A stretch of DNA of 59,673 nt from a virus (taxonomy: Duplodnaviria; Caudoviricetes). Where the stretch lies: the IMG/VR virus record IMGVR_UViG_3300045141_000191, positions 1 to 59,673 of that record. One strand, written 5' to 3'. Positions 1-59,673 of the stretch are shown here, one piece after another. Numbering within the stretch: the first letter of the stretch is position 1; the number at the start of each line of letters is the position of its first letter. The translations under genes were made by a program, and so were the position numbers. The notes below the pieces were generated by a model. It was not told the DNA's origin and searched no databases. It saw nothing but the letters and a program-made list of their open reading frames with translations.

Positions 1-419
1 GGGTAGACGGAGGCGCCGCCCTGGCCGCCGTACTCCGTGCCGCCCATGACGAGCGCCGAGTGTCCAGCCGTGTCGGAGTCCCCGAAAAAGAACGCCTTCT
101 CGCCCGGGCCGCCGCGTCCAGTGCCCGCCTTCGAGACCATGAACTTCGTGAAGTCGTGGCCGGAGCCGTGGAAGACGACCTTCGGGCTCCCGTCCTCGTG
201 CACGACCTTCGACGCGCCGAACCACGCCTTGAACTGGGGCGTGTGGGTGAGCGTCGAGCCGCTGCCAGCCCAGCGGCCCGCCTCGTCTCGCGGCTGCTCC
301 TCGCTGTAGAGCTCGACCGGGACGAGGTACGCCCTGCGCCCTCGAGCAGGCGCGCGCTTGCCGCTGGCGATCCGTGCGGCCGCGCCCGCGAGGTCCAGGT
401 AGTGCCTACTTACGCCCAC
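1..419 (-). CDS. 5' part of the MuF-like polyvalent head protein (tag motif plus N-half of an ART-PolyVal-like domain); runs off the left end
   Basis: Not in the ORF track; my translation from GTG at 419 (overlaps the portal stop): MGVSRHYL...VELYSEEQPRDEAGRW...TPQFKAWFGASKVVHEDGSPKVVFHGSGHDFTKF...AFFFGD...ASVYP. FKxWFG-SKVV-DG-P-V-(F/Y)HG is the ART-PolyVal N-terminal signature. Confidence 0.8.
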   Translation of the reverse strand, partial: MGVSRHYLDLAGAAARIASGKRAPARGRRAYLVPVELYSEEQPRDEAGRWAGSGSTLTHTPQFKAWFGASKVVHEDGSPKVVFHGSGHDFTKFMVSKAGTGRGGPGEKAFFFGDSDTAGHSALVMGGTEYGGQGGASVY

Positions 420-2016
420 CGAGTCCCGTCCGCTTCTTGGCGTACTGGATCGCCCGCTTGCGCTCGTACTCCATGTAGCCGCGGATCACCTTGCGGACCT
501 CCTCGTACACGTGCGTGCCCTTGAGCGAGGGATCGACTGCGGCGGGGGCGAGCATCCGCTGCTCGACGAGCTCCTGCAGGGCGTCGAGCGCCTGCTTGTT
601 CTCGGCCGGCGGCCCGCCTGCGGGTGGTGTCGCGGCGGCTCCGGTCGGGAGGGCGCCGAGGTTCTTCTCGCCCTCCTGAGCGACGCGCAGCGTGCAGCGG
701 CGGACCAGATCCTCCGTGGCGATCGACTCGCCCGCGCCGGCGTTCTTGAGGTTGAGGGCCGTGGTGGCGAGCTGCACCGGGTCGTCGCGCTCGATGAACG
801 TGAGGCGAATGATCGGCGAGTGCTCGCGCGCGATGTCGTCGCCCAGGTTGCGGGCCACGAGGATGCGCCCGAGGTTGCGCGTGATCTGGGCCGAGAAGGT
901 CCGCAGGCGGGAGTTCGTGAGGTCGCGGAACTGATCCTGCGCCGTGATCGAGGACATCTTGCCGCCGACGCCCTTCTGAACGCCCGTGGCCTGCGAGTGC
1001 CCGAGGATGGCCTGGTCGTACTGGCGGACGCACCAGTCGATGATCGTCTCGAAGGGGTTCTGGCTCCCGCCGTTCGACGCCTCGAGCAGCTGGAGTTCGG
1101 TGCCCAGGTTGAACACGCCGTACGAGGTCGAGCCCATGTTCTTGAGTCCGGCCTTCGCCTCGGCCACGCGCTGCGGGTGGTTGAAGTCGACCTTCGCGAT
1201 GCGCGGCGGGATGCCGAACAGTTCGACGTACTTGGCGTACCAGCGCACGCCGTACTGCTGGATGCCCCACGGGACGAGGCACTGGAAAAAGAGGCCGCGC
1301 TGGTCGAGCGGCGTCGAGGGGTTGATCTCCGTGAAGAAGAGCCCTTCCGTCCCGCCGTCAGATCGCAGCGCGAGGTCGTCCACGGGCTCCCCGATCCACG
1401 AGTCGGGCGAGAGCATGAGCATCCACTTCCGGGTCAGCGGGTCGAGCCGGTGGCGACGCGCGGGGATCTGCTCGAGATAGTCGATCGAGTCGAACTTGCC
1501 GGCGTTGCCCCTCGGCAGCAGCGTGATCTTCGAGTCCGCGATCCCGTAGAAGTGCTGGTCGGCGTGGATCTCGATGAGCTCGGCCAGGTGCGGCGAGAGC
1601 GTGTCCTCGAGGAAGTCGCGTGCGGCCCGTGCGTTCGCGACGTCTTTCGGGTCCGCGTCCTCGGGCATCGAGCTGTCGTCGTCGTAGTCCTCCGGGTCCG
1701 TGACGAAGTCGGCGTTCGCGCTCTTCATGCCCTCGACGGCGAGCGTCTTTTGCGGGCCGGGTCCCATGCGCTGCCACTCGTCGTACATGGCGTAGAGGTA
1801 GCGCGGGTCGCTGTACCTCGCCCGGTGGCGGTTGTTGCGCACGTCCTCGGGCGTGAAGTCGCGGCCCAGGGTGACCAGGTTCGCGCGGTTGATGTCGCTC
1901 TGGTAGTCCGCGAGGATCTTGTCGACCTCGTCGCGGTTCTTTTCCTCGGCGTCCTTGATCGACGGGATGTCGTCTGGCGCGGTGCCGAGCATTCGCTGGA
2001 GAAACGTGCCGGCCAT
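406..2016 (-). CDS. Portal protein, DUF935 / Mu gp29-like
   Basis: 536 aa downstream of TerL; WYAKYVELFGIPPRIAK and QAILGH segments typical of DUF935 portals. Confidence 0.8.
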   Translation of the reverse strand: MAGTFLQRMLGTAPDDIPSIKDAEEKNRDEVDKILADYQSDINRANLVTLGRDFTPEDVRNNRHRARYSDPRYLYAMYDEWQRMGPGPQKTLAVEGMKSANADFVTDPEDYDDDSSMPEDADPKDVANARAARDFLEDTLSPHLAELIEIHADQHFYGIADSKITLLPRGNAGKFDSIDYLEQIPARRHRLDPLTRKWMLMLSPDSWIGEPVDDLALRSDGGTEGLFFTEINPSTPLDQRGLFFQCLVPWGIQQYGVRWYAKYVELFGIPPRIAKVDFNHPQRVAEAKAGLKNMGSTSYGVFNLGTELQLLEASNGGSQNPFETIIDWCVRQYDQAILGHSQATGVQKGVGGKMSSITAQDQFRDLTNSRLRTFSAQITRNLGRILVARNLGDDIAREHSPIIRLTFIERDDPVQLATTALNLKNAGAGESIATEDLVRRCTLRVAQEGEKNLGALPTGAAATPPAGGPPAENKQALDALQELVEQRMLAPAAVDPSLKGTHVYEEVRKVIRGYMEYERKRAIQYAKKRTGLGGRK

Positions 2017-2485: not shown

Positions 2486-2715
2486 TCGAACGCCGCCTCG
2501 AGCGCTGCCATCACCGCGAGCTTGTGCTCGATGAGGTACTGGGCCTGCATCCGCCGCCCTTCTTTCGCCGCCTCCGGGAGCTCGTGCCATTCCGTGAACG
2601 GCTCGTCGCCCCACACGGGCCGGTTGAGAACCTTGCCCTTCTGGACGGCCTCGCGCCCCGCCTCGTGCAGGATGCGGGCGAGGCGCTCAGAGGCGTAGAG
2701 GCGACCGTCCATCAC
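2482..2715 (-). CDS. Hypothetical protein
   Basis: 77 aa, coupled to the TerL stop; WHELPEAAKE resembles RyR-like phage domains. Confidence 0.55.
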   Translation of the reverse strand: MMDGRLYASERLARILHEAGREAVQKGKVLNRPVWGDEPFTEWHELPEAAKEGRRMQAQYLIEHKLAVMAALEAAFE

Positions 2716-4172
2716 CGGTAGCCCTCGTCCGGCAGTTCGTCGCCGGGGCCGGGTTCGTCAGACTCGTCGCGCGAGTAGATCGCCGGCTGGCCCAGTTCGC
2801 CCACGAACTCGCCCGTGCCCTCGATCGCGAGCCCGTCCACGTGCGCGGCGATGTAGCGCAGGGTGTCCATCCCGTGATCGAACTTCTTCACCGGCTCCTC
2901 CCTGAGCGCGCGACCGTCTGGAGCTGTCGGCCAAGAATAGACCTCGAACTCCTCCAGGGAACAGGTCGGAAGGTGCGCGGCGGCCAGATCCGGGTCGCGC
3001 TCCTCGCAGGCGTCCTCGACCACGTAGAGGCGGGGCTTGCCGTCGCCCTGGACAGCGAGGCGCGCTTGGAGGTTCTGGATGCCCGGCGATACCGACTTGA
3101 ACGCCGGGAGGGTCGGGATGCCGCGACGCTCGAGCGTTGCGCGGCCCTCGGCGTCGTGGTCGGCCACGGCTGTCGCGGGCGGGCGCCCGAGCCGGTAGCG
3201 CTTGATCTCCTCGGCGTGATCCTCCACGAGGCGCTTCGTCCGGTAGATTTCGCGCTCGAGGTACATCCGGCCGTCGCCGTCGAGCGCGACCCGCTGCCAG
3301 CAGAACGGGTTCGAGTAGCCGAAGTCGATCCCCTCGTACCACTGGGTCACGATCAGCTTGTCGAACGCCTCGCGCGTGATGACGTGGACGCCGCGGTCGA
3401 ACGTGTCGTAGACGGCGCCCTCGGCCTGCACCCACTTGCCGCGGAACAGGCGTTCGCGGCGGACGCCCGTCAGCGCCTGCAGCGTGGCCAGCGAGCGCTC
3501 GCCCTGCGCCGTGATGTGGCCGTCGTCGTCGAAGAGCGTCGGGTTGTCGGTGTGGACCGAGTGCAGGAGCTTGATGCGGGGCCGCTTGAGAATCCAGTGC
3601 GTGGGCGGTCCGGGGTTGCAGTCGCCGAAGAGCATCGGGGTGGGCGTCACGACGCCGCGGCCAGTCGTTCTCGTGGTGCAGTATTCCCAGTCGTTGACCT
3701 GGAGCTGTTCCGCCTGGTTGACGTACATCCAGTCCAGCTCGGACGACAGGACCTTGCCAGGGTCGTCCAGCCCCGCCACGAAGCAGCGCGCGCCGTTGCC
3801 GTAGTGGAACGACTCGACGCTGCGGCCGCCGTAGCGCGTGACGCCCCCCCGAATGCTGACGATGCGATCCCAGGTCTCGAGGACGGTCGTGACCATGTCC
3901 TTGCGCACCTTGCGGACGATGGCGGCCTTCGCCTTCGGCGTCGTGCGCAGGAGCGAGTCGAGGTACCAGAGGCCCGCGTAGGTCTTGCCGGTTTCGGCCG
4001 GTCCGGCGAGGAGCCATTCCTGCGTGGTCGTGCGCTGCGCCTCGAGCGCGGCGCCCCGGAACCTGGGGACGGCCACCGGCTGGAGTCGGGCGCGTTCGCG
4101 CTTGAGCTTCAGGGCCGCCGCGGCGAGCGGGAGGAGCTGCAGCGCGGCGCCAGCCCTCGCCTCTGGCTTCAC
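2712..4172 (-). CDS. terL: Terminase large subunit
   Basis: Walker A GPAETGKT, atypical Walker B YVNQAEQ, coupling motif DCNP, RNase H-like nuclease motifs GIDFGYSNP and DHGMDTLRY. Confidence 0.93.
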   Translation of the reverse strand: MKPEARAGAALQLLPLAAAALKLKRERARLQPVAVPRFRGAALEAQRTTTQEWLLAGPAETGKTYAGLWYLDSLLRTTPKAKAAIVRKVRKDMVTTVLETWDRIVSIRGGVTRYGGRSVESFHYGNGARCFVAGLDDPGKVLSSELDWMYVNQAEQLQVNDWEYCTTRTTGRGVVTPTPMLFGDCNPGPPTHWILKRPRIKLLHSVHTDNPTLFDDDGHITAQGERSLATLQALTGVRRERLFRGKWVQAEGAVYDTFDRGVHVITREAFDKLIVTQWYEGIDFGYSNPFCWQRVALDGDGRMYLEREIYRTKRLVEDHAEEIKRYRLGRPPATAVADHDAEGRATLERRGIPTLPAFKSVSPGIQNLQARLAVQGDGKPRLYVVEDACEERDPDLAAAHLPTCSLEEFEVYSWPTAPDGRALREEPVKKFDHGMDTLRYIAAHVDGLAIEGTGEFVGELGQPAIYSRDESDEPGPGDELPDEGYR

Positions 4173-50754: not shown

Positions 50755-52686
50755 CTAGAGGACCGTGAGCGGGATCGTCGCCGTCTGGAAGAGGAACGCG
50801 GCAGAGGTCTTGGACGGCGTGGCGGCCCCGACGACCTCGACCGTATACATGTCCGAGACCGCGATGCCGTCCGAGCCGTTGAGGCCCCTCTTGTCGTCGT
50901 CGAGGCCGCGGACCATCGGGTAGCCCGCCGAGACGACCGTCGCGAACGCGCGCGGCGCCACGACCTTGCCCCTCGAGGTGACGGCGAGGATGACGTCCTG
51001 CGCCCACGGCGTGTCGGGCGTGAGGCCGCCGGGCTTCGTGGAGATGCGGCAGGTCGGGACGATCAGCGGCCCGAGGATCGCGACGAGCATCTCGATCGGG
51101 ACCATCGCCTCGGGCTGGTCGATGTGCGACATCCCGGCCGCCTGCGCGGCCTTCAGGAAGTCCGGGTGGAAGCGGAGGGACTCGACGACATCGGGCGGCA
51201 TGAGCGAGAGATCCGGGAACGCGCCGACGGCGCGCCAGATCGTGACGCGCGCGCCCTGCCAGTCCTGGATGGGCGTCCCGGTGGGGAGGTGCCACTGGCG
51301 CGTGGTCGTGAGCGACTTGACGAAGCCGGTGTTGTAGTTCGCGGCGTTCCGGAGGGTCGCGGCCTGCACCAGTTCCTTCTTGTTCTTCTCGATCGTGAGC
51401 GCCTGTTCGGTGACGGTCGCCATCACGCCCATCGGGAGGACGGCGTCGCCCGCGCTCTGGTCGCGGCGGTCCGCCCAGACGCGGTTGCCGTAGCCGTGGA
51501 GCGTGACCTTCTTGAAGTCCGCGCCCCAGACCGACTCGTCGATGTCCTGCGCGTTGCGGCCGACGGGCTCCGGGAGGCCGCTGGCGTTGACCGAGACCTG
51601 GAGCTTCTCGGTGCCGTACACCGGGTAGCTGGCCTCCTCGTTGGCCCCGCCCGTGACCTCGACGGCGATCTCCGAGCCGCCGAACTCGCCCTGGAAGTAG
51701 CCGAACCCGAACCCGGCGACCTGGAACTTGGTCGGGGGCTGGAAGTTCGACGCCTCGCCCGCGAGGCTCATGCGCTCGAGGGCGGCCCGCTGGAGTTCGG
51801 CGGGGATCACGCTCGTCGGGATGCGGCCGGCGTTGAGCTGCTGGCCGATCTTCTTGAGCATGTCCGCGTCGAGCTCCTGCGACGTGAGGTAGCCCTTCCG
51901 GAGTCCGGTGGGCCACTTGATGCCGCGCTCGCCGGTCTTTTTCTCTTTGCCCCAGTCGGGGTTGCACTTGAGGACCATCCGGTGGAAGGCGCCCTCGTCG
52001 CGCGCGTCCGAGCGGACGTCGACGAGCGCGAGCTCGAAGGGCTTGCCCGTGTGGAGGTGCCACCCCGCGGCCCGCGAGAGGATCGCCCCGGCCTCGGGGA
52101 GCGGGAGGGCGTCGACCGAGAGCGAGGGGTCGATCCCGGCGCTCTCGATGCGGCCATCCGGCACGATGGCGCCCGCCCGGCGGCTCGAGAGGATCTCGCG
52201 CGCCTTGTCGGCGTTCGTGCCGTACATGGTGCGGAAGAACTCGCGGTCGGCGGCCACGAGTTTGCCGGCCTTCTCGAACGTCTCGAGCTCCGCGTCGATC
52301 TTCGCGGCGGCGTCCTGGGCCTTGAGGTCGGCCCGGACGAGCGTCATCGCGCTCTTGGCCGCCTCGGCAGCGATCGAGGGAATGGCGCCCTTGATCGCCT
52401 TCGCGGTCGCCTTCGCGGCGGCCTTCTCGGTCGCCTCATCCGCCCCGCCGTCCTTCGCGTCCTCGGCGTCGTCGGCCTTGCCCGCGTCCGCCGCGGCCTT
52501 CTGCGAGCAGTCGGGGCAGTCGGAGTTCGACTTGCCGTCGTGCTCGCCCGCGTCGTGCGCCTTCTTGAGGAACTGCGGCGGGATCGCGTCGAGCTTCTGC
52601 GTCTTGAGAGCCTGCACGGCGGCCCTCACCTGATCGGGGGTGGCGCTTTCGTCGAGGCCGAGCGCCGCGAGAGTTTCACGGTCCAT
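50755..52686 (-). CDS. Probable internal in-frame start giving a scaffold-capsid protein (643 aa)
   Basis: AAAGGAG-N6-ATG (MDRETLAALGL) directly after the protease domain. Confidence 0.65.
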   Translation of the reverse strand: MDRETLAALGLDESATPDQVRAAVQALKTQKLDAIPPQFLKKAHDAGEHDGKSNSDCPDCSQKAAADAGKADDAEDAKDGGADEATEKAAAKATAKAIKGAIPSIAAEAAKSAMTLVRADLKAQDAAAKIDAELETFEKAGKLVAADREFFRTMYGTNADKAREILSSRRAGAIVPDGRIESAGIDPSLSVDALPLPEAGAILSRAAGWHLHTGKPFELALVDVRSDARDEGAFHRMVLKCNPDWGKEKKTGERGIKWPTGLRKGYLTSQELDADMLKKIGQQLNAGRIPTSVIPAELQRAALERMSLAGEASNFQPPTKFQVAGFGFGYFQGEFGGSEIAVEVTGGANEEASYPVYGTEKLQVSVNASGLPEPVGRNAQDIDESVWGADFKKVTLHGYGNRVWADRRDQSAGDAVLPMGVMATVTEQALTIEKNKKELVQAATLRNAANYNTGFVKSLTTTRQWHLPTGTPIQDWQGARVTIWRAVGAFPDLSLMPPDVVESLRFHPDFLKAAQAAGMSHIDQPEAMVPIEMLVAILGPLIVPTCRISTKPGGLTPDTPWAQDVILAVTSRGKVVAPRAFATVVSAGYPMVRGLDDDKRGLNGSDGIAVSDMYTVEVVGAATPSKTSAAFLFQTATIPLTVL

Positions 52687-55122
52687 GTTGGACTCCTTTC
52701 GAGATGTCGGCCTCGCGGCCGCTGCCTGAGCTGAGAGCGATGCGGGCGGAAGGTTCGAGAGCGCGGGGACCGGGACGAGCGACGCCGCCCGCCAGTAGAG
52801 CGGCATGTAGTGGGTCGTCTTGGCTCCGGCCGGGAGCGGCTTGAGCGTGTCGGAGTCGAGCGGCTGGCAGTACGCGTCCGGGCTCACGAATCCGCGCTCG
52901 CCCGTCTGGAGGTCAGCCGCGGCCGCCTTCGTCCAGTAGATGCCGTCGGCGTAGATGAACTTCGCGTCGGCCGAGAAGTGCGTCATGTAGCCGGCGTTCT
53001 TGCTCGCCAGCATCGGGTCGACCTCCGGGTCCTCGTGCACGTAGGTGAACGGGACGGGGGCGATGCCCTCGTTCCCGTCGGCGAGGAGCGAGGCGACGGC
53101 CTGACGGTTCACGACGAAGACGCGGCCGTCGCGCGCCTCGGAGGTTCCGATCGGCCAGAGCTTCACCGGCGAGCCGCGGATGAGGCCCTTGCCGCGGAGG
53201 GCCGGCGGCAGCTCGGCGTCCGTGGCGGGGCCGACGATCTTGAGGTCGGTGAGGACGGCGGCGGCCATCGACTGGCCGACGAGTCCGGAGCGTGCGGCGG
53301 CCTTGAGCGACTTGGGCGGCCAGTGCGCGAGTACCTGACCCGTGAGGAGATGGGCGCGCTGGGAGCTCTCTTGCGCGTACTTCGTCGCGGCTGCTCCCGG
53401 CCTCGCCACCGGCTGATTTCCGGGGAACTTCCCGGCCGCGATGAGATGGGTATTCAGCGCCGTGGCATGGGCGTTGATAGCTTCCGTGAGCGGCTGACTG
53501 TTGCTAGCCCCGCCAGGTCGCCCGCGCCACTTCGCATCCTGGACGCCGATCTCATCGAGTTTCTTCATCGCCGCACGGTGATACTCGGCGGCAGCCGCAT
53601 GTTCGCCCGAGGAGCTGGCCTTTTCGGCAGCCTTACCCTCGCTGCCACCGCCGGCCGCCCAGCGGCCGTGCTCGTCGCGTTCCTGATCCTCCGAGTAGAG
53701 CGCCTCGGCTCCGTCGCGTCCGGCGGCGAGGAAGTAGTGCGCCGGCAGCTTCGTCTTGCGACCGGCGAGTTCGTCATTCGTGGCCCGGTGTGCCAGCCGC
53801 GACGCCTTGCGCGCATCGTCGGACTTCTTCCCGAACATGTCCTTGCCTTCGGCTTTCGCCCTCGCGGCGAGATCGTGCTCCCCCGCAGCGACGGCGTGCG
53901 CGGTCGCTGCGTTCTTGTACCCGAGCTTGTCGAGTTCCCTCGCGGCCGTGTCGTGGTACTGCATCGCGTGGTTGTGCTCGACCGCGAGCTTCGCCTTCTC
54001 GGCGATGGCCGCGTCATGCGGGCGCGCGTAGTAGATATCCTTCGCCGTGCCGATGAACGGCTTGCCGACGTGGACATCGACCGACCCGACCGTCGGCGCC
54101 TTCCCGCTCGCCCCGCCACCGTCGCCGCCGCGTCCGTGGTCGTCGTAGCCGGTCGAGTCGGGCCAGAGCTTCTGCTGGTCGAGCGCGAGCTCTGCCTCGG
54201 CGCGCGCGATGAGGGCCTGGCGGTCAGCCTCCTCAGGACTCGCGGCCGCCTTCGCCCCTGGCCAGCCCGTCGGCCAGCCCCGATGGGGCGTCTGACTCGG
54301 ATGCGTCTCCGCGTGGTCCGTTCGCCACTTCGCCCACGGCGTGTTCCCCGCGTTCGCCTCGCGCGAGGTGCTATGCGCGCCCCTCGACGCCCCCTCGGCG
54401 ATCTTCTGGTTCGTCCAGTTGTCGGGGTTCGTCTTTGCCTCGTTGTGCCAGTGCGCGGCCCAGGCGTGCGAGTTCGCCGCCTCCGTGTGCTCGATCGTCC
54501 GCTCAGGCGTGTTGCCCGGCTTGCCGGCTTCGCCCAGGTGGAACGCCGCTGCGGCCTTGTGGTAGTTCGCGGCCGTCGCGTGGCCGGAGGGCGACGCGGT
54601 CCTTTCGGCGTGGCGACCGGCAGCGGTTCCGCCAGCCGTCCAGCGGCCACCCTCGTCGCGCTCCTGGTCGGGCGCGTAGAGGGCCTCGGCTCCGTCACGG
54701 TCGGCCTTCGCCTTCGCCGCCTCGTCCTCGTCCGCCGCCTCGCGCACCGTCCCGTCCGGGCCGGTCGTGCTCGAGGCGTCCGCCAGCGGCACGTTGTCCG
54801 GGTCCGGCGGCATCAGCGAGTCGTCGCCCTCGGGCCGTCCGTCGGCGAACACGCGCCCGATGACGCGGTCGTCCTCGGTGAGCCCGACGCCGTCCGGGAG
54901 TGGGACGGAGGCGACCGGAGGGACCGGCGGTGTGGCCACGGGCGGGTCGACCGGAGGGACGATCGGTGGGGCTGGCGCGGCTCCGATGTCCAGGGTGTCC
55001 GCGGTAGGTGGTTGGAACGAGGAGGCTTCCCCGCCGCCGTCGGCTGCTTTCTGGCGTGCGAGTTCCGCATTCGCCAGCGCTTTTGCAGTCGCGGCGAGGG
55101 CGTCGCGTACCGCGTCGTTCAT
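50755..55122 (-). CDS. Head polyprotein: three tagged His-rich modules, Mu gpI-like prohead protease, scaffold and major capsid protein
   Basis: Protease at ~52740-53170 (WPIGT..RDGR, TYVH, AGY, WTKAA, GFVSP, SLVPVPAL); scaffold ALGLDESAT; the last ~330 aa are capsid-like and precede the cement genes; no internal stop. Confidence 0.8.
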   Translation of the reverse strand: MNDAVRDALAATAKALANAELARQKAADGGGEASSFQPPTADTLDIGAAPAPPIVPPVDPPVATPPVPPVASVPLPDGVGLTEDDRVIGRVFADGRPEGDDSLMPPDPDNVPLADASSTTGPDGTVREAADEDEAAKAKADRDGAEALYAPDQERDEGGRWTAGGTAAGRHAERTASPSGHATAANYHKAAAAFHLGEAGKPGNTPERTIEHTEAANSHAWAAHWHNEAKTNPDNWTNQKIAEGASRGAHSTSREANAGNTPWAKWRTDHAETHPSQTPHRGWPTGWPGAKAAASPEEADRQALIARAEAELALDQQKLWPDSTGYDDHGRGGDGGGASGKAPTVGSVDVHVGKPFIGTAKDIYYARPHDAAIAEKAKLAVEHNHAMQYHDTAARELDKLGYKNAATAHAVAAGEHDLAARAKAEGKDMFGKKSDDARKASRLAHRATNDELAGRKTKLPAHYFLAAGRDGAEALYSEDQERDEHGRWAAGGGSEGKAAEKASSSGEHAAAAEYHRAAMKKLDEIGVQDAKWRGRPGGASNSQPLTEAINAHATALNTHLIAAGKFPGNQPVARPGAAATKYAQESSQRAHLLTGQVLAHWPPKSLKAAARSGLVGQSMAAAVLTDLKIVGPATDAELPPALRGKGLIRGSPVKLWPIGTSEARDGRVFVVNRQAVASLLADGNEGIAPVPFTYVHEDPEVDPMLASKNAGYMTHFSADAKFIYADGIYWTKAAAADLQTGERGFVSPDAYCQPLDSDTLKPLPAGAKTTHYMPLYWRAASLVPVPALSNLPPASLSAQAAAARPTSRKESNMDRETLAALGLDESATPDQVRAAVQALKTQKLDAIPPQFLKKAHDAGEHDGKSNSDCPDCSQKAAADAGKADDAEDAKDGGADEATEKAAAKATAKAIKGAIPSIAAEAAKSAMTLVRADLKAQDAAAKIDAELETFEKAGKLVAADREFFRTMYGTNADKAREILSSRRAGAIVPDGRIESAGIDPSLSVDALPLPEAGAILSRAAGWHLHTGKPFELALVDVRSDARDEGAFHRMVLKCNPDWGKEKKTGERGIKWPTGLRKGYLTSQELDADMLKKIGQQLNAGRIPTSVIPAELQRAALERMSLAGEASNFQPPTKFQVAGFGFGYFQGEFGGSEIAVEVTGGANEEASYPVYGTEKLQVSVNASGLPEPVGRNAQDIDESVWGADFKKVTLHGYGNRVWADRRDQSAGDAVLPMGVMATVTEQALTIEKNKKELVQAATLRNAANYNTGFVKSLTTTRQWHLPTGTPIQDWQGARVTIWRAVGAFPDLSLMPPDVVESLRFHPDFLKAAQAAGMSHIDQPEAMVPIEMLVAILGPLIVPTCRISTKPGGLTPDTPWAQDVILAVTSRGKVVAPRAFATVVSAGYPMVRGLDDDKRGLNGSDGIAVSDMYTVEVVGAATPSKTSAAFLFQTATIPLTVL

Positions 55123-55200
55123 CGCTTGCCTCCGTGTCGGTTCAAGAGTGAGGGCATTTCCTAAGAAAATGCGAGTGCGTTTTTTCCGCTTGCGTAAGTT

Positions 55201-55419
55201 TCAGCGCACGACGACGGGGCCGCCGGAGATCAGCCCGAACGCCCACAGGATGAGCAGCAAGATCAGGATGAACCCGAGCACGGCCCACATCGGCTGCGGG
55301 ATCGTGAAGTTCAGCAGCCCGGCGAGCCACTTCAGGCCGAGGAGCAGGAACACGATGATGGCGACGCCGATGAGGAACCAGATCACGCTGGTGAGTGAGA
55401 TCGCGAGCGCTGGGATCAT
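55201..55419 (-). CDS. Small two-TM membrane protein (holin candidate)
   Basis: 72 aa, almost entirely hydrophobic; AAAGGAGG SD. Confidence 0.6.
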   Translation of the reverse strand: MIPALAISLTSVIWFLIGVAIIVFLLLGLKWLAGLLNFTIPQPMWAVLGFILILLLILWAFGLISGGPVVVR

Positions 55420-56426
55420 GGGGGGCCTCCTTTCGGGGGGGTTGCCTCGAGCGTCTGACGGTCGGAGTCGGGCACGTAGGTGATCCAGACGAGCGCGCTC
55501 GCCTTCTTCCTCGTGCCCTTTGCGGGAACGTCGGCGTAGGTGCGGATCTCATGCAGGAAGTCATCGCTCCCGGTCGTGATGAGCGCGCCCTTCGGAATGT
55601 TCGCGGACGGCACGCGCAGGATCCGGATGTTCTTGGGGTCGATCTTCGCGAGCGCCTCGCGCTGGCCGGCGAGGACGGGGTTCTTGAGGAGCCCGACATC
55701 ACGGCCCGCACTCTGCCTGCCCCAGAGGTACGCGTTGAACGCGTCGTGCGCGAGGCTCCGGAGCGTCTTGTCGCGCTGCTCGGGCGTTTTCGGGAGGCCG
55801 GTGTCGTAGTCGGGCCGGTCGAGGGTAAAGAGGTTCCCGTTCCACTGCCTCATCGCCTGCTCGACGGCGCCGTTGAGCGTGCCCGGCGGAACGTGCGCCT
55901 CTTTCTCGTCCTCAGCGGCCCACTTGGCGAACATCCCGGCGTCGATGCCCTCGCCGCGGGCGATCTGAACGCCGCGCGTGAGGTCGCGCTGGATGACGCG
56001 CGCGTCTACCGGGGAGAGCGTGAACGAGACGCCCTCCGCTTGCCCGCCGCCGAGGCCGCCCGCTTGGTTGAGCTGGCCCAGGAGCACGCCAGAGGACTCG
56101 ACCGCCGGCGCGTTCGTCGTGACGTGGTAGAGGTACTGCGGGAGCGTGGCGGGGTCGACCACCTTGCCGGTGAGGAGCCGCCCGGTCTGTTCGCCCTTCT
56201 CATCGACCCAGCCGAACTTCGTCTCGCCCCATGAGGTGAACGGCTGGATCTGCTCGGGCCGGTTGAAGACGCGCGGATTCGTGGCGTAGGTCGAGGCGCC
56301 GCCGCCGTCGGTCCACTTCCCCGCCTCGTCGCGCGGCTGGTCCTCCGAGTAGAGCTGCTGCTGCGACGTATCTACGACCTCGAACGGATTGGACACGAAA
56401 TCGAGGAGCTTCTCCGGATGAATCAC
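55416..56426 (-). CDS. Tagged stand-alone ADP-ribosyltransferase-fold protein
   Basis: Tag LYSEDQPRDEAGKW, then YLYHVTT...GVSFT...ILRV...LHEIR (H..S..E ART pattern). Confidence 0.6.
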   Translation of the reverse strand: MIHPEKLLDFVSNPFEVVDTSQQQLYSEDQPRDEAGKWTDGGGASTYATNPRVFNRPEQIQPFTSWGETKFGWVDEKGEQTGRLLTGKVVDPATLPQYLYHVTTNAPAVESSGVLLGQLNQAGGLGGGQAEGVSFTLSPVDARVIQRDLTRGVQIARGEGIDAGMFAKWAAEDEKEAHVPPGTLNGAVEQAMRQWNGNLFTLDRPDYDTGLPKTPEQRDKTLRSLAHDAFNAYLWGRQSAGRDVGLLKNPVLAGQREALAKIDPKNIRILRVPSANIPKGALITTGSDDFLHEIRTYADVPAKGTRKKASALVWITYVPDSDRQTLEATPPKGGPP

Positions 56427-59400
56427 GGCTTTTCCTCAATCTGAACGTGCCACCGACCGCTGCTGTCCTGACGTGAGCTGCGAATCTTGAACGAGGTGCC
56501 GGGCCGATAGGTGATCTCCTTCTGGCCCCATCCGGCCTGGGTCTCTACGAACGGAACGCCGTTGCGCCCAGCGATTTCGTAGACCACCTCCGTGTCCCCT
56601 TTGACTGGCGTGTCCGGGTTGTTCTTCTGTTGTTCCCGCAGCTGCACAAGCCAGCGGTCGGTGAACTGTTCGTCTCTCGTCGTCGACATAAACGCTGGCG
56701 AGCGTAATTCTCCAGACGCGAGCTGCCGAGCGAGATCCGCGGCCGGCATGACGACTCCACGATATGTGGTCCCAGGCTCGGCTGCAGTGTGGTCCATGAA
56801 ATCCAGAATTGCCGCGGTCTTGTCACGCAGCACGCCCTCCGCACCTTGCGGTACAGAATCTGCGCCGCGGAGAAGTTCGTTCATTCTGAACGCGCCGTAT
56901 GCGGTGTACCGGTCCACCTCCTCGAGCGCGAATTTAGCCCTCGCCGGAGGTAGGCCAGCTGCCTCGAGGCGGGCGCGAACGTCGGCCTTGAATTCGTTTC
57001 GGTCCGGCTCGTAGCCTGGGGAGACACGAGAGATTGCGAGGGACCGCGTCCCCGCGCTGGTCGGGCCGCCTCCCGCCGCGTCCGCGAACTTGCCCGCATC
57101 GTCTCGAGGGTGCAGCGACTCGTCCCACTCGGCCTCGAGCTTCTGCGCGCCGCCCTTGTACCAGCGCGGCAGCGGGAGCCCTGCCTTCGACGCGACGTCC
57201 AGAACGTGCCCGAACGCCTTCGCGTACCGGCCGCCCTCCTCCTCCCACGGCTGCGTCTTCGAGTGGTAGAGCTCCGCGTAGATGTCCGCCAGCATCTCCT
57301 CCGGGCGCGAGGACATGCCGGCGAAGTTGTCGTAGTTCCACGGGTTGTCGGGGTTCGTGCGGAAGGGCCGTAGCGGCTCCACCCACCCCTGCGTGCTGGC
57401 GGACCGCTGCGCGACCTCGTGGCCGAACTCATGCGCCAGCGTGACGGCGCGCCCGAACTCGCTCTGGTCGAAGAAGTCGGGAAAGACGTGGACCTGGCCC
57501 TCGCCCTGATACTGGGCGAGAACCATCGGGCCGACCTTCGTGGGATCGCCCATCGAGACGTTCGGAACCTTGCCCGCCGCAACGTCTGCGGCGGTGGCCG
57601 TCTTGATGCCTTCGATCGCTGACGAGACGCCGCCGCCTGTCCAGCGGCCGCCCTCATCCCTGGGCTGGTCCTCCGCGTAGAGCTTCTGCGTCGTCGCCGG
57701 GTGCTCCACCACGACGACCGCCGGGAACGACTTCGCCCCGATCTTCTGCAGCGCGGCCGCCCGGTGCGCGCCCTCGAGGATGTACGGCCCCTTCTCGTCG
57801 TGGGCGACGATGAGCGGGGCGATCTGTCCGCTCGCCTTGATCGCCTCGGCCAGACGATCGACCCGCTCGTGGTCGCTCGCCGCGTAGAACATGTCGTGCG
57901 GCTTGAGCGACTCGAACGCGGCGACCGGAACCTCCCGCACGCCGGGGAGGACCGTATGCTCGCCAGCCGAGAAGCTGGCGCCGATCGACTCCAGGTTCGG
58001 CGTGTACTCGAGGACCTCGCGCCCGTCCACGACGCCGCCGGCCTTCGGGTAGCGTTCGTCGGCCCTGGCCACGACGCCGCCGGCGCTCCAGCGGCCCAGT
58101 TCGTCGCGGGACTCCGACTCGTCGTAGAGGCGCTGCCGCTCCGCCGCCAGCTTCGAGCCGGAGCCCGCCACGGGGTGCCACGTGCCGCCGACGCTGAGGT
58201 ACTCGAGCCGGGAGGTCGGGACGGCCTTGCGCGTGTAGAAGTCGCCCGTCCCCTCCGCCCGGAACTCGTGCGAATCGCGCCGCACGCGCAGGAGCGCCGA
58301 CTTCCCTTCCGCCGGCGCGAACGACTGCGCGGCGTGCGGTGACTGGGCGAAGTACGCCCGGCGCTCGACACCGCGGTCGGGCCACGCGTTCTGGTCCGGC
58401 GTCCCGTGACTCGGCCCGAAGAGCTTCAGCTTCCCCTCGTCCTGGATGTCCGCGAGGTTCTCGCGGTTCGTCGCGTGGTAGAGGTAGTCCGGGTGCGCGG
58501 TGGCGGTCGGCCAGCTATCTGCCGGCAGCACTCCGCCGGCCCCGCCACCGCCGCCCGATTCGGTGAACTCTCCGCCCTCGTCGCGCGGGTGCAGGTCTGG
58601 ATCCCACTCTCCGAGCGCCTCGGGCACGAGCGCGAGCTTCGCCCCGACCGGCTGGTTCAGGAAGTCCCCGACGCCGCCCAGCGCGTCATCCAGGGGCGTG
58701 ACCGGCGTGAACGTCCGCTGGCAGTAGGGATGCTCCTTCGGGTTGTCGAGCGCCTGCTCGATCGTCCACCGCTGGCCGTTCGCCTCGATGCAGGGCTCGT
58801 CCCAGAGCTCGCCGTCCGACACGTCGACCTCCTCGACGCCGGCGTCCTGCCAGGCGAGGAGCTGAACGGTCGTGCCCATCTCGTCCGTCTCGGTATCGGC
58901 CACGACGTCCGGCCGGTAGGAGGCGAAGGCGTAGAGGCCCATGAGGCGGGCGAAGAGCGACGCCCAGGAGGGCGAGGTGTCGACCTCGTCTGCGGTCGCG
59001 CCGTCCGGAACGGCGACTGGCCGCGCCTGAGCCGCCAGGGCGTCGTCCACCACCTGGTTGACCTGTTTTTCGGTCGTGACCGTGATCGCCTTCTCGGCTG
59101 TCGGGTCCACGACGAACGAGCCGTCGGCTGCGACCGTGAGGCCCATGAGTTCGGCGGCCCTCTCGCGGCCAACGCGCACGGCGATCTCCTCGACGGTCGA
59201 GGCGTCGATCCCCAGGGCGAGGCGCTCGGCAGCGCTCATGGCCTCGTTGCGGGCGGCCATCGCGAGGAGCGTCGCCAGAATCGCGGCGACCCGCTTGGCC
59301 TCCTCGTGGTCGGTGTGGAACTGGCCGTCGCCGGGGTCTGGGGTACCGTCGCCGTCGCCCTGGGCCTCGCGTTCGGCGCGAGTACGACGCCAGCCCGAGT

Positions 59401-59673
59401 CGTCTGGGGGGGTGGAGTCCCTGCGGCCGCGCAGGACCGCGTCGAGTTGCTGGGATGGCTCGAGGAGGTACGAGCGGCGCGCGCCCATGCCGAAGTGCGG
59501 GTTCTTCGGGTCGAACGTCCCGCGGTTGCCGATGGCGCTCTTGATCTGGGTCGGCTTGAACACGGCGATGGTGTTCGTCTCGCCCGGCGTCGTGATCTTC
59601 GGGAAGAAGATCCCGTCGTGGCCCAGCGCCTTCGCCGTCTTGATCTCCTGCGTCATTTTCTCGCCGTTGTAGT
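56423..59673 (-). CDS. MuF-like polyvalent head protein, 3' part (open at the right end): ART-PolyVal C-half, MuF-like, H-type ART, ParB-like, zincin, VIP2/Alt-like ART
   Basis: GHDGI..VFKPTQIKSAIGNRGTFD; C..ANG..HPYCQR; YLYHAT..YFA; PLIV..ILEGAHRAAA; LAHEFGH..EEMLAD; YT..MNELLR..YRG..FMSTT..QKE. Confidence 0.85.
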   Translation of the reverse strand, partial: YNGEKMTQEIKTAKALGHDGIFFPKITTPGETNTIAVFKPTQIKSAIGNRGTFDPKNPHFGMGARRSYLLEPSQQLDAVLRGRRDSTPPDDSGWRRTRAEREAQGDGDGTPDPGDGQFHTDHEEAKRVAAILATLLAMAARNEAMSAAERLALGIDASTVEEIAVRVGRERAAELMGLTVAADGSFVVDPTAEKAITVTTEKQVNQVVDDALAAQARPVAVPDGATADEVDTSPSWASLFARLMGLYAFASYRPDVVADTETDEMGTTVQLLAWQDAGVEEVDVSDGELWDEPCIEANGQRWTIEQALDNPKEHPYCQRTFTPVTPLDDALGGVGDFLNQPVGAKLALVPEALGEWDPDLHPRDEGGEFTESGGGGGAGGVLPADSWPTATAHPDYLYHATNRENLADIQDEGKLKLFGPSHGTPDQNAWPDRGVERRAYFAQSPHAAQSFAPAEGKSALLRVRRDSHEFRAEGTGDFYTRKAVPTSRLEYLSVGGTWHPVAGSGSKLAAERQRLYDESESRDELGRWSAGGVVARADERYPKAGGVVDGREVLEYTPNLESIGASFSAGEHTVLPGVREVPVAAFESLKPHDMFYAASDHERVDRLAEAIKASGQIAPLIVAHDEKGPYILEGAHRAAALQKIGAKSFPAVVVVEHPATTQKLYAEDQPRDEGGRWTGGGVSSAIEGIKTATAADVAAGKVPNVSMGDPTKVGPMVLAQYQGEGQVHVFPDFFDQSEFGRAVTLAHEFGHEVAQRSASTQGWVEPLRPFRTNPDNPWNYDNFAGMSSRPEEMLADIYAELYHSKTQPWEEEGGRYAKAFGHVLDVASKAGLPLPRWYKGGAQKLEAEWDESLHPRDDAGKFADAAGGGPTSAGTRSLAISRVSPGYEPDRNEFKADVRARLEAAGLPPARAKFALEEVDRYTAYGAFRMNELLRGADSVPQGAEGVLRDKTAAILDFMDHTAAEPGTTYRGVVMPAADLARQLASGELRSPAFMSTTRDEQFTDRWLVQLREQQKNNPDTPVKGDTEVVYEIAGRNGVPFVETQAGWGQKEITYRPGTSFKIRSSRQDSSGRWHVQIEEKP

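Follow-up and report, generated by a model that had tools for sequence, protein, structure and literature searches.

What is the role of a short peptide that stands, again and again, at the head of otherwise dissimilar modules in the structural genes of a tailed phage? Effectors that are packaged in the head and injected are thought to be a phage's first weapons, and they are now recognised only through fusion to a known anchor or by virion proteomics. In the stretch of phage DNA analysed here (59,673 nt; the window), the minus strand of three adjacent head-module genes was found to encode eight clear copies and one degenerate copy of such a peptide (the tag). The main, class-A, form follows the pattern [L]-Y-x-E-x-Q-P-R-D-E-x-G-R-W, and the HPRD form follows W-D-E-x-L-H-P-R-D-x-x-G-K-F. 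The copies are given below, with i-E values from the family HMM.

270..311, minus strand: tag 1, LYSEEQPRDEAGRW, after a 35-aa leader, heads the ART-PolyVal module of the polyvalent head protein (i-E 3e-10)
58565..58621, minus strand: tag 2, EALGEWDPDLHPRDEGGEF, HPRD variant (i-E 3.8e-6)
58088..58129, minus strand: tag 3, LYDESESRDELGRW, heads the ParB-like module (i-E 1.8e-5)
57641..57682, minus strand: tag 4, LYAEDQPRDEGGRW, heads the HExxH module (i-E 6e-10)
57086..57139, minus strand: tag 5, LEAEWDESLHPRDDAGKF, HPRD variant, heads the C-terminal ART-like module (i-E 1.5e-7)
56313..56354, minus strand: tag 6, LYSEDQPRDEAGKW, in the stand-alone cargo gene, after a 23-aa leader (i-E 3.7e-12)
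54640..54681, minus strand: tag 7, LYAPDQERDEGGRW, in the 1455-aa polyprotein (i-E 1.2e-8)
54127..54168, minus strand: tag 8, LWPDSTGYDDHGRG, degenerate, missed by the family HMM
53659..53700, minus strand: tag 9, LYSEDQERDEHGRW, in the 1455-aa polyprotein (i-E 2.6e-10)

All nine peptides listed in the initial annotation were found on the minus strand at the positions given there, apart from tag 2, for which the peptide was correct and the coordinates (58562-58620) were 1-3 nt off frame. A six-frame scan of the window revealed the tag in the three head-module genes and at no other site. A loose core, [RYH]D[DE].G[RKE][WFG], matched nine times in six frames, exactly at the nine tags, compared to a mean of 0.27 and a maximum of 3 in 300 residue shuffles, and a strict core matched seven times, compared to 0.07 expected by shuffling. 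The family HMM, made from 660 tag copies, mostly of other phages and with the window's own copies among them, recovered eight of the nine tags (i-E 4e-12 to 2e-5), whereas its best non-tag match in the window had an i-E of 3.4. The copy that it failed to recover, tag 8, is degenerate, as had been noted, with Tyr in place of Arg and Gly in place of Trp. Where the nine copies share a residue, they share the codon in 0.72 of cases, compared to 0.64 expected from codon usage. Codon sharing this close to expectation places the conservation in the peptide, and an origin of the similarity in recent DNA duplication or gene conversion was rejected. In the structural model of the stand-alone protein (orf336), residues 1-50, spanning the leader and the tag, had pLDDT values below 50, and the tag is predicted to be intrinsically disordered.

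The genes that carry the tags, together with their main domains and upstream neighbours, are arranged as follows.

2712-4172, minus strand: terminase-position gene, a terminase-size ORF named by position and size alone
406..2016, minus strand: portal-position gene, 536 aa, directly upstream of the polyvalent gene, named by position and size alone
3..419, minus strand: 5′ part of the polyvalent head-protein gene (leader, tag 1, first half of ART-PolyVal), running off the record start
56423..59671, minus strand: 3′ part of the polyvalent gene (second ART-PolyVal half, MuF-like region, four tagged modules)
55416..56426, minus strand: stand-alone cargo gene orf336, 336 aa, with one tag (tag 6)
50755..55122, minus strand: 1455-aa polyprotein (leader, three tagged helical modules, Mu gpI-like protease, scaffold-like region, major capsid domain)
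52600..53166, minus strand: protease fold of the Mu-like_Pro match, about aa 653-841 of the polyprotein
50785..51702, minus strand: major capsid domain, aa 1141-1446 (phrog_1005, E 4.6e-16; PDB 3bjq, E 0.0066)

Read along the minus strand, the order is terminase-size ORF, 536-aa ORF, polyvalent gene, orf336 (whose GTG start overlaps the stop of the preceding gene, GTGA) and protease-scaffold-capsid gene. The Mu-like_Pro family (PF10123) matched aa 653-984 of the polyprotein above its gathering score (51.3 bits, cut-off 25.2), and the protease region matched phrog_328, a head maturation protease, at E 1.1e-21. With the protease and the capsid confirmed by Pfam and PHROGs, the tag genes are placed in the virion (late) module. 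A word-based homologue search with the protease region returned a single match, P0171 (72% identity over 45% of the 361-aa query), and the same type of search with the capsid region returned none. The Phage_Mu_F family (PF04233) was not detected anywhere in the window, even with the threshold relaxed to E<=10; a home-made MuF profile, derived from five MuF segments that Pfam confirms in other tag proteins, matched weakly at aa ~226-309 of the polyvalent gene (E 2e-4 in a two-sequence search; hhalign probability 48%). The placement of Pfam and PHROGs domains and the family-HMM scan bore out the earlier statement that the structural domains carry no tag.

The names first given to the tagged modules fared less evenly. 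In the polyvalent gene, the MuF-like region is followed by an uncharacterised module and by the ParB-like, HExxH and ART-like modules, in that order. The ParB-like name was upheld by Pfam (ParB_N, E 7.7e-5) and by a PDB ParB match (E 7.6e-6). The ART-PolyVal name is supported by matches of its two halves (E 2.7e-6 and 2.3e-6), both of which fall under the gathering score because the ends of the record split the domain; in the relative L194 this domain is undivided. The gene unites at least two unrelated effector-type domains, ART-PolyVal and ParB_N, in one polypeptide. For the C-terminal ART, the sole match was a weak one in the PDB (6dre_B, E 0.049), and the basis of the zincin name is the string HEFGHE alone. 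The two modules called H-ART found no support in Pfam, PDB sequence search or Foldseek, and the three supposedly distinct His-rich modules of the polyprotein are paralogous copies of one helical module. These helical repeats ahead of the protease are not obvious effectors, which counts against reading the tag as a cargo header.

The initial annotation had also proposed searching phage proteins with a profile of the nine copies, to see whether matches are confined to domain borders and head-module genes. Among 1.84 billion (1.84e9) cluster representatives, the nine-copy profile matched 1829 protein clusters at E<=0.001, 369 at <=1e-10 and 29 at <=1e-30. The family consensus is K-Y-S-P-D-Q-P-R-D-E-H-G-R-W-T, followed by a Gly-rich spacer. 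In 663 strict cores from 170 stored proteins, the Arg was kept in 100%, the Asp in 97%, the Gly in 99%, the Arg/Lys in 94% and the Trp/Phe in 99%, and position +7 was occupied by Thr (54%), Ser (15%), Ala (15%) or Gly (11%). Proteins carry up to 19 copies, with a median inter-tag distance of 252 aa (5-95%: 142-705). In 52% of proteins no more than 60 aa separate the N-terminus from the first tag, and in 90% the C-terminus is 180 aa or more beyond the last one; none of 43 tags overlapped a listed Pfam stretch in the 12 proteins with a match. A tag was found just upstream of homologues of the window's cargo in five of six cases for the ParB-like module, two of three for the orf336 cargo and 22 of 37 for ART-PolyVal; the 15 ART-PolyVal homologues with no detectable tag just upstream count against the header reading. 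Copies in prophages were seen in several bacterial phyla, and in-frame tags are carried by genomes of cultured strains, for example of Nitrospirillum, Azospirillum, Caulobacter and Amycolatopsis. No model covering the tag was found in Pfam or NCBIfam.

A Pfam scan of 98 tag proteins revealed ADPrib_exo_Tox (18), Phage_Mu_F (14), ART-PolyVal (8) and Zeta_toxin (7), with Portal and S78 protease domains likewise present. Tag genes sit between terminase or portal genes and protease or capsid genes. In IMG/VR, upstream neighbours (125 ORFs, 73 loci) gave about 20 terminase and 24 portal matches from five portal families, and downstream neighbours (148 ORFs, 81 loci) gave 12 capsid, 18 protease-type (S78, S78_2, DUF2213) and 6 MuF matches; these counts cover a minority of the ORFs, most of which had no Pfam match. 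From the census, the position at domain borders and the neighbouring genes, it follows that the tag is genuine, under selection as a peptide and associated with head-module cargo. The portals and proteases of the phages that keep it belong to at least five and four families, respectively (the proteases to S78, XkdF-type, DUF2213 and Mu-like). Because the tag spans these different families, a purely protease-specific signal is not the sole reading, and a single lineage-specific enzyme could hardly account for such wide conservation.

Each tag had been described as beginning right after a Leu. This holds directly for seven of the nine copies; in the two HPRD-type copies the Leu sits 2-3 residues ahead of the Trp. 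The site before each header in the window is short and ends in Leu ([Q/E/V]-x-L). The window also places tags within one protease-scaffold-capsid polyprotein, which must be cut to mature, and this allows the candidate cut site after Leu to be compared at tagged and untagged borders. Eight Q[KQR]L strings occur in the three proteins, five before tags and three at the tag-less borders given here (the slash marks the candidate cut).

59444..59452, minus strand: tag-less Q-Q-L site at the border from ART-PolyVal to the MuF-like region, SYLLEPSQQL/D
52591..52599, minus strand: tag-less Q-K-L site after the protease fold, at the protease-scaffold border, QKL/DAIPPQF
51835..51843, minus strand: tag-less Q-Q-L site at the scaffold-capsid border, 47 aa before the capsid-family match, QQL/NAGRIP

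Two of these three x-x-Leu borders are conserved in relatives that differ from the window in the sequence on the flanks. SYLLEPS[QE]QL is kept in P0010 (SYLLEPSEQL/A) despite a different upstream cargo, and at the protease-scaffold border L194 has QAL/APVPPQF, giving a shared form Q[KA]L/xxxPPQF. Three non-tag sites, against about one expected from a rough composition estimate, are no significant excess by count; what carries weight is where they stand and that two relatives conserve them. A further indication comes from position -7, the residue just before the tag, which is the most lineage-specific position family-wide: its identity is 0.80 within proteins compared to 0.41 between them, and the next largest gap is 0.26. 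This residue is Lys throughout in 57 of 107 proteins, and in the window it is Leu in all seven class-A copies. As a caution, uniformity within proteins could partly reflect shared descent of the tags within a gene, and gaps of 0.16-0.26 are seen at other variable positions too. Together, the tag-less borders and the lineage-specific -7 residue provide indirect support for a putative cut after Leu. Co-folding of a 144-row tag alignment with the protease domain (aa 640-850) gave a score of 0.01, against a mark of 0.32, with the partner at pLDDT below 50, a result that bears on binding in neither direction, and a literature search on the cleavage specificity of the Mu gpI family yielded nothing usable.

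The tag is probably a previously undescribed label for capsid-carried proteins. We give about even odds (probability roughly 0.5) to a mechanism in which it is a disordered header on head-internal cargo, exposed when a prohead protease cuts after the Leu. Such a header would mark the head-internal modules of tailed phages, which are joined to an anchor within the head (portal, MuF-like protein or prohead protease) or come from small genes of their own next to the anchors; fusion of the cargo to protease, portal or MuF domains suggests the head-internal location. The anchors would bring the polyproteins into the procapsid, the Mu gpI-like prohead protease would cut after the Leu, and each freed module would then begin with the header, as some stand-alone tagged proteins already do when they are made. 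Something shared by many phages would recognise the universal part of the header, and the cargo would thereby be retained in the head or leave together with the DNA. In its strongest form, the tag would be a universal, portable "carry me in the head" address that stays on the cargo after a lineage-specific cut and is read by a feature common to tailed-phage procapsids, whatever their portal or protease family. This stronger form is held only tentatively, as less likely than not. In modules fused to an anchor an additional address is redundant, which counts against the favoured mechanism. With more than 1800 protein clusters carrying it, a header of this kind would allow such cargo to be recognised from sequence alone, even where a gene stands by itself and its fold is unknown. 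It would also account for a given module being an independent gene in one phage and part of a giant polyprotein in another, and would provide a means of loading proteins into capsids. If the address were universal, the injected protein arsenal of uncultured phages could be deduced directly from their sequences, and about 20 added residues could suffice to load a foreign protein into a capsid.

The same redundancy would be expected if the whole tag were merely the primed-side (P′) recognition sequence of prohead proteases, turning a linker into a good substrate and having no role in addressing, retention or exit. The tag's place directly after the lineage-specific residue, its predicted disorder and Gly-rich spacer, and the several prohead protease families encoded beside tag genes all agree with such a role. 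The tag-less borders of the same polyproteins, on the other hand, appear to use the x-x-Leu site, so that a border does not depend on a tag for its definition; some tags begin 5-10 residues from Met1 (at most 10 residues precede the tag in 13 of 162 proteins), where a cut would remove almost nothing; and strict conservation across phages with S78, XkdF-type, DUF2213 and Mu-like proteases speaks against it as well. We regard this explanation as unlikely. Conservation independent of the phage's own portal and protease family would also follow if the tag acted after injection, in the host, by binding a conserved bacterial factor or being cut by a host protease, and in this way localised, released or activated each effector module. 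The prophage copies in several bacterial phyla and the behaviour of the tag as a disordered motif with invariant Arg, Asp, Gly and Trp fit this proposal. Against it, tags are also found in front of the helical repeats joined to the protease, which look head-internal rather than host-directed; Mycobacterium phage Mangeria gp83, a non-head gene with a homologous cargo domain, has no tag (n=1); and the proposal does not call for the tight head-module linkage seen. Action in the host seems quite unlikely.

Near-invariant residues and independence of the protease family would equally suit chemistry inside the motif, by which the chain would be cut without a separate protease. The tag has no invariant Ser, Thr, Cys or Asn nucleophile, it is predicted to be disordered, and we know of no self-cleaving motif that it resembles; autoproteolysis is therefore judged very improbable. 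Little credence can be given, also, to the view of the tag as a passive joint, a linker kept as a recombination point for cassette swaps and read by no biochemical partner. Tag and domain do form a portable cassette, since the orf336 cargo stands alone in the window and is an internal tagged cassette in P0017 (i-E 1e-77), and upstream cargo is swapped at conserved borders between the window and P0010. Recombination needs DNA identity, whereas codon sharing is close to expectation, and invariant residues across the 1829 clusters point to selection on the peptide.

The header on cargo, as favoured here, has partial counterparts in known systems. In phage T4, the internal proteins and Alt bear a capsid-targeting sequence that is removed by the gp21 prohead protease. 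This short N-terminal peptide is common to unrelated head-internal proteins, including an ADP-ribosyltransferase; it is lineage-restricted, amphipathic and cleaved at its C-terminal side (L/I-x-E). The tag likewise heads unrelated modules, in the window and elsewhere, and may likewise be coupled to a prohead protease. Unlike the T4 signal, it spans many phage lineages and repeats inside polyproteins, and its lineage-specific residue is on the N-terminal side, so the tag would stay on the cargo; removal of the tag is argued against because that residue precedes the tag and does not follow it. The HK97 maturation protease reportedly has a C-terminal capsid-targeting tail, a short peptide that suffices to bring a protein into the procapsid. 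That tail differs from the tag in being C-terminal, specific to one protease-capsid pair and not common to unrelated cargo. Polymorphic toxins have pre-toxin motifs, VENN in CdiA and PxxxxDPxGL in Rhs (Zhang et al. 2012). Like these, the tag is a short conserved border motif before interchangeable effector cassettes, with cassette swapping; VENN and PxxxxDPxGL occur once per protein in secreted bacterial toxins, whereas the tag occurs up to 19 times per protein in phage head modules.

Another close setting is that of the phage-type polyvalent proteins and MuF- or portal-fused effectors, in which anchors associated with the head bear many effector domains of unrelated kinds (ARTs, ParB-like, zincin, Zeta, 2H, GNAT); their genes lie among late and virion genes, and packaging and injection have been suggested for the products (Iyer et al. 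2017, PMC5512222; Jamet et al. 2017, PMC5576092; Iyer et al. 2022, PMC9503650). Both the proteins of the window and the 98 tag proteins scanned agree with this description. In the parts consulted of PMC5512222 and PMC9503650, and in section 7 of PMC5576092, no mention of a recurring header peptide was found, and in this portion of the literature on polyvalent and MuF effectors the tag is apparently undescribed. The supplementary alignments of PMC5512222 may show the motif. Zincin metallopeptidase domains were proposed by Iyer et al. as the processing agent; in contrast, no zincin family was present among the Pfam families listed for the 98 tag proteins (25 of 41 and 25 of 29), and zincin-mediated processing was set aside as a general mechanism.

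Searches of 50,697 phage records with tblastn gave no match to the 27-aa tag at E<=10, an E-value that a lone 15-aa motif cannot reach, so that this result carries no information on isolated phages, and none to the polyprotein; the polyvalent protein matched through one module alone, in 193 Mycobacterium phage records, with the tag-less Mangeria gp83 as the gene concerned. A search by portal protein led to no related locus in IMG/VR, and P0010 led to one distant IMG/VR locus and two small metagenome contigs, with L194 among them. The only match of the tag profile to PDB sequences, 9rku_Af (E 5.6), was rejected as too weak. By Foldseek, neither the orf336 model nor the helical module ahead of the protease matched a PDB structure at E<=0.001. 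The orf336 cargo had no match above 0.89 in the ESM Atlas, where a lead was provided by one cluster with PARP in 16% of its members.

The recurring peptide of about 15 residues that heads modules fused to head proteins in the window was found to be a genuine and widespread header on phage head cargo, and is apparently undescribed. The nine peptides listed in the initial annotation are all present where it placed them, with the coordinates of copy 2 off by 1-3 nt. A loose core regular expression, applied to the six reading frames of the window, returned exactly nine tag copies (0.27 expected), and a strict core expression gave 7 matches (0.07 expected). A family HMM built from 660 tag copies, the window's own among them, recovered eight of the nine with i-E values of 4e-12 to 2e-5, while the next-best match in the window had an i-E of 3.4. 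The copy missed was copy 8, already described as degenerate. Because identical residues among the nine copies share the same codon at a frequency of 0.72, compared with 0.64 expected from codon usage, the likeness of the tags is kept at the peptide level and is not a residue of recent DNA copying.

Head-module features of the window
2712-4172, minus strand: terminase-size ORF, named by size
406-2016, minus strand: 536-aa ORF in the portal position, named by position
419 running off the record start and resuming from 59671 to 56423, minus strand: large polyvalent gene, from the ORF call and the ART-PolyVal halves
55416-56426, minus strand: 336-aa ORF (orf336), a stand-alone tagged cargo gene
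55201-55419, minus strand: 72-aa strongly hydrophobic ORF, with two or three membrane helices predicted by eye
50755-55122, minus strand: 1455-aa ORF (the polyprotein)
53203-54615, minus strand: trio of paralogous modules rich in Ala and His, N-terminal to the protease

The search profile consisted of nine window stretches of 40 aa. A shared-word profile search of long proteins identified 30 proteins with 1-7 copies each, 27 of them from outside the window, and the nine-copy profile matched 1829 of 1.84 billion cluster representatives at E<=0.001 (369 at <=1e-10 and 29 at <=1e-30). Up to 19 tag stretches were found in the giant protein P0052 (7334 aa) and 15 in P0067 (5313 aa), both of which carry many ART-PolyVal-like modules in tandem. 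In 170 tag proteins, with 721 HMM matches and 663 strict cores, the consensus is K-Y-S-P-D-Q-P-R-D-E-H-G-R-W-T-x-G-G-G-G, and the core is highly conserved (R 100%, D 97%, G 99%, R/K 94%, W/F 99%). In the same set the median spacing of the tags is 252 aa (5-95% range, 142-705); 52% of proteins have their first tag no more than 60 aa from the N-terminus, and in 90% the C-terminus is 180 aa or more beyond the last tag. None of 43 tags overlapped a Pfam stretch in the 12 proteins with stretches listed. The tag is therefore part of the module downstream of it. The homologues of the window cargo concur, with a tag directly upstream of 5 of 6 ParB-like, 2 of 3 orf336-type, and 22 of 37 ART-PolyVal domains; the orf336 cargo recurs as an internal tagged cassette in P0017, a 1610-aa Zeta-toxin protein (i-E 1e-77). 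The tag is unmodelled in Pfam and NCBIfam, as no family was common to most members among the 98 tag proteins compared with Pfam or the 59 compared with NCBIfam. A tag-like string, SQPRDASGRFAYSGGP, was also seen at an E of only 5.6 at residues 82-97 of PDB 9rku chain Af, which belongs to the baseplate complex of Agrobacterium phage 7-7-1; a genuine match would give the tag its first example in a solved virion structure, and one outside the head.

The Pfam domains of the 98 tag proteins (ADPrib_exo_Tox 18, Phage_Mu_F 14, ART-PolyVal 8, Zeta_toxin 7, DUF7178 5, 2H ligase 4, and further GNAT, InPase, RelA_SpoT, Tpt1, portal, and S78-type protease families) are the repertoire of phage-type polyvalent proteins. 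A degenerate exact DNA pattern for DQPRD[DE]xGRW matched 102 IMG/VR stretches, 98 of which hold an in-frame tag ORF. Ninety of the 106 complete IMG/VR ORFs carry a single tag, and tagged ORFs are often consecutive, in runs. The two nearest same-strand ORFs were taken on either side of the tagged genes. Upstream (125 ORFs, 73 loci) were terminase large-subunit families with 9, 7, 3, and 1 members and five portal families with 8, 6, 5, 3, and 2. Downstream (148 ORFs, 81 loci) were Phage_capsid 9, Phage_capsid_4 2, Major_capside 1, and cement protein 4, together with S78 6, S78_2 6, DUF2213 6, and Phage_Mu_F 6. The census, the border positions, and the nearby genes tie the tag to head-module cargo. 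Most neighbour ORFs have no Pfam match. The tag is conserved over phages with differing portal and protease families. With one genome per prokaryote species, the same DNA pattern gave 86 stretches, 82 with the tag in frame, mostly from Alphaproteobacteria, with a few from Actinomycetota and other phyla; these are no fair taxonomic sample, because the pattern favours G+C-rich codons. The exact pattern is also present in a contig binned to a Thermoplasmata archaeon (L169, from a MAG), which may reflect misbinning or an archaeal virus that bears the tag.

The T4 capsid-targeting sequence is the closest analogue of the tag by function. It is restricted to one lineage and is taken off its cargo, whereas the window-type tag occurs in many lineages and would stay on. 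The system in the window falls within the class of phage-type polyvalent and head-anchored effector proteins that Iyer et al. 2017 (PMC5512222) and Jamet et al. 2017 (PMC5576092) described. Nothing about a header peptide that recurs was found in the portions of PMC5512222 and PMC9503650 covered or in section 7 of PMC5576092; supplementary alignments may show the motif. Full-text literature searches brought up no account of such a motif.

The Leu said to precede every tag stands immediately before the aromatic residue in seven of the nine copies, but lies 2-3 residues further upstream in the two HPRD-type variants. The three window proteins contain eight Q[KQR]L motifs, five directly ahead of tags and three at untagged borders; the latter number is not significant by count alone.

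Untagged Q[KQR]L sites
aa 74-76 of the resumed polyvalent gene, minus strand: ART-PolyVal/MuF-like border
aa 842-844 of the polyprotein, minus strand: after the protease fold
aa 1094-1096 of the polyprotein, minus strand: 47 aa ahead of the capsid-family match

At the first site, the window reads SYLLEPSQQL/D and the relative P0010, with another domain as its upstream cargo, SYLLEPSEQL/A; at the second, the window has QKL/DAIPPQF and the relative L194 QAL/APVPPQF. Leu also precedes both L194 tags (KL/YSEDQPRAADGRF and QL/WVEGQARDDAGRF). Over 419 tags from 107 proteins, each with three or more class-A tags, position -7 (directly before the aromatic) showed the largest gap between identity within a protein (0.80, a value inflated by common descent of tags inside one gene) and between proteins (0.41), the next gap being 0.26. 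It is Lys throughout in 57 of the 107 and mostly Lys in 12 more; smaller groups are dominated by Ala, Phe, Glu, Asp, Gly, or others, and the window lineage by Leu. A universal tag behind a lineage-specific residue has the look expected of a lineage-specific protease site before a common header. Because the positions following the tag have gaps of only 0.16-0.18, the pattern argues that a cut, if any, would leave the tag attached to the cargo. At most 10 residues stand ahead of the tag in 13 of 162 proteins, the state that the predicted cut would produce. Disorder is predicted for the orf336 leader, tag, and spacer (pLDDT 31-36 over residues 1-50). An address joined to a protease cut after Leu is the best-supported, though unproven, reading of the tag: in the window lineage, a lineage-specific protease would cut after the Leu, and the header would remain on the cargo.

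The proposed names of the cargo modules fared unevenly. ART-PolyVal was upheld by Pfam, a family whose first 40 and last 45 positions are matched by the two parts of the polyvalent gene, and ParB-like by Pfam and a PDB sequence search. The C-terminal ART drew weak support from the PDB sequence search; the zincin is a candidate read from an HExxH string. Pfam Phage_Mu_F had no match in the window, and a home-made MuF profile gave weak support. The two modules labelled H-ART went unsupported in Pfam, PDB sequence search, ESM Atlas, and Foldseek. PHROGs places the module after tag 2 in phrog_3147, a family of unknown function. This module is 46.5% identical to the C-terminus of a 755-aa protein of 193 Bixzunavirus-type records (gp83 of Mycobacterium phage Mangeria, L196 1084-3351), whose gene is tag-less and stands beside tRNA genes, not head genes. 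The three His-rich modules, thought to be distinct domains, are instead mutual paralogues (30-33% identity), also paralogous to one module in the relative, with His invariant at four positions, spread over two H-x2-A-x3-H motifs. Their model is a three-helix bundle (helix pLDDT ~85-93) with no match in the PDB, and they may have a structural or metal-binding role inside the head and not be effectors.

The window (59,673 bp, 69% G+C) spans an entire IMG/VR virus record, classed as linear, with a CheckV completeness estimate of 82%. Its ends (1-5 and 59669-59673) cut the ART-PolyVal of one gene and join out of frame, with 4 nt over; in L194 the domain is undivided. Comparison by eye with L194 suggests a gap of roughly a dozen codons at the junction; the record is therefore probably a circularly permuted genome, nearly complete, and not an 82% fragment. 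The polyprotein matches Mu-like_Pro at aa 653-984 (51.3 bits; Pfam cut-off, 25.2) and a major-head family at aa 1141-1446, with a weak PDB capsid match. A single uninterrupted ORF encodes the protease, the scaffold-like region, and the major capsid domain, with ~650 aa of extra modules ahead. Making every capsid subunit from the full 1455-aa ORF would leave very little room inside the procapsid; initiation at internal starts, or expression at unequal levels, seems likely.

The ATG of the 72-aa hydrophobic ORF overlaps the orf336 stop, and a membrane protein is odd at this site, between a cargo gene and the protease-capsid polyprotein. The MuF-like protein of L194 (39-2432, plus strand) has, by eye, an intein-like insertion of ~330 aa ending HN/C, inside a conserved EHPxCQRS motif, with no tagged cargo downstream. 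The polyprotein N-terminus (aa ~20-40, AEL.R...GGGEASSFQPPT) echoes the pre-capsid stretch at aa 1105-1131 (AELQR...AGEASNFQPPT), and the separate protease gene of L194 (2432-4024) opens with an AEL.R-type motif after Q-K-L. This motif may serve capsid and protease precursors alike as a leader or N-arm signal.
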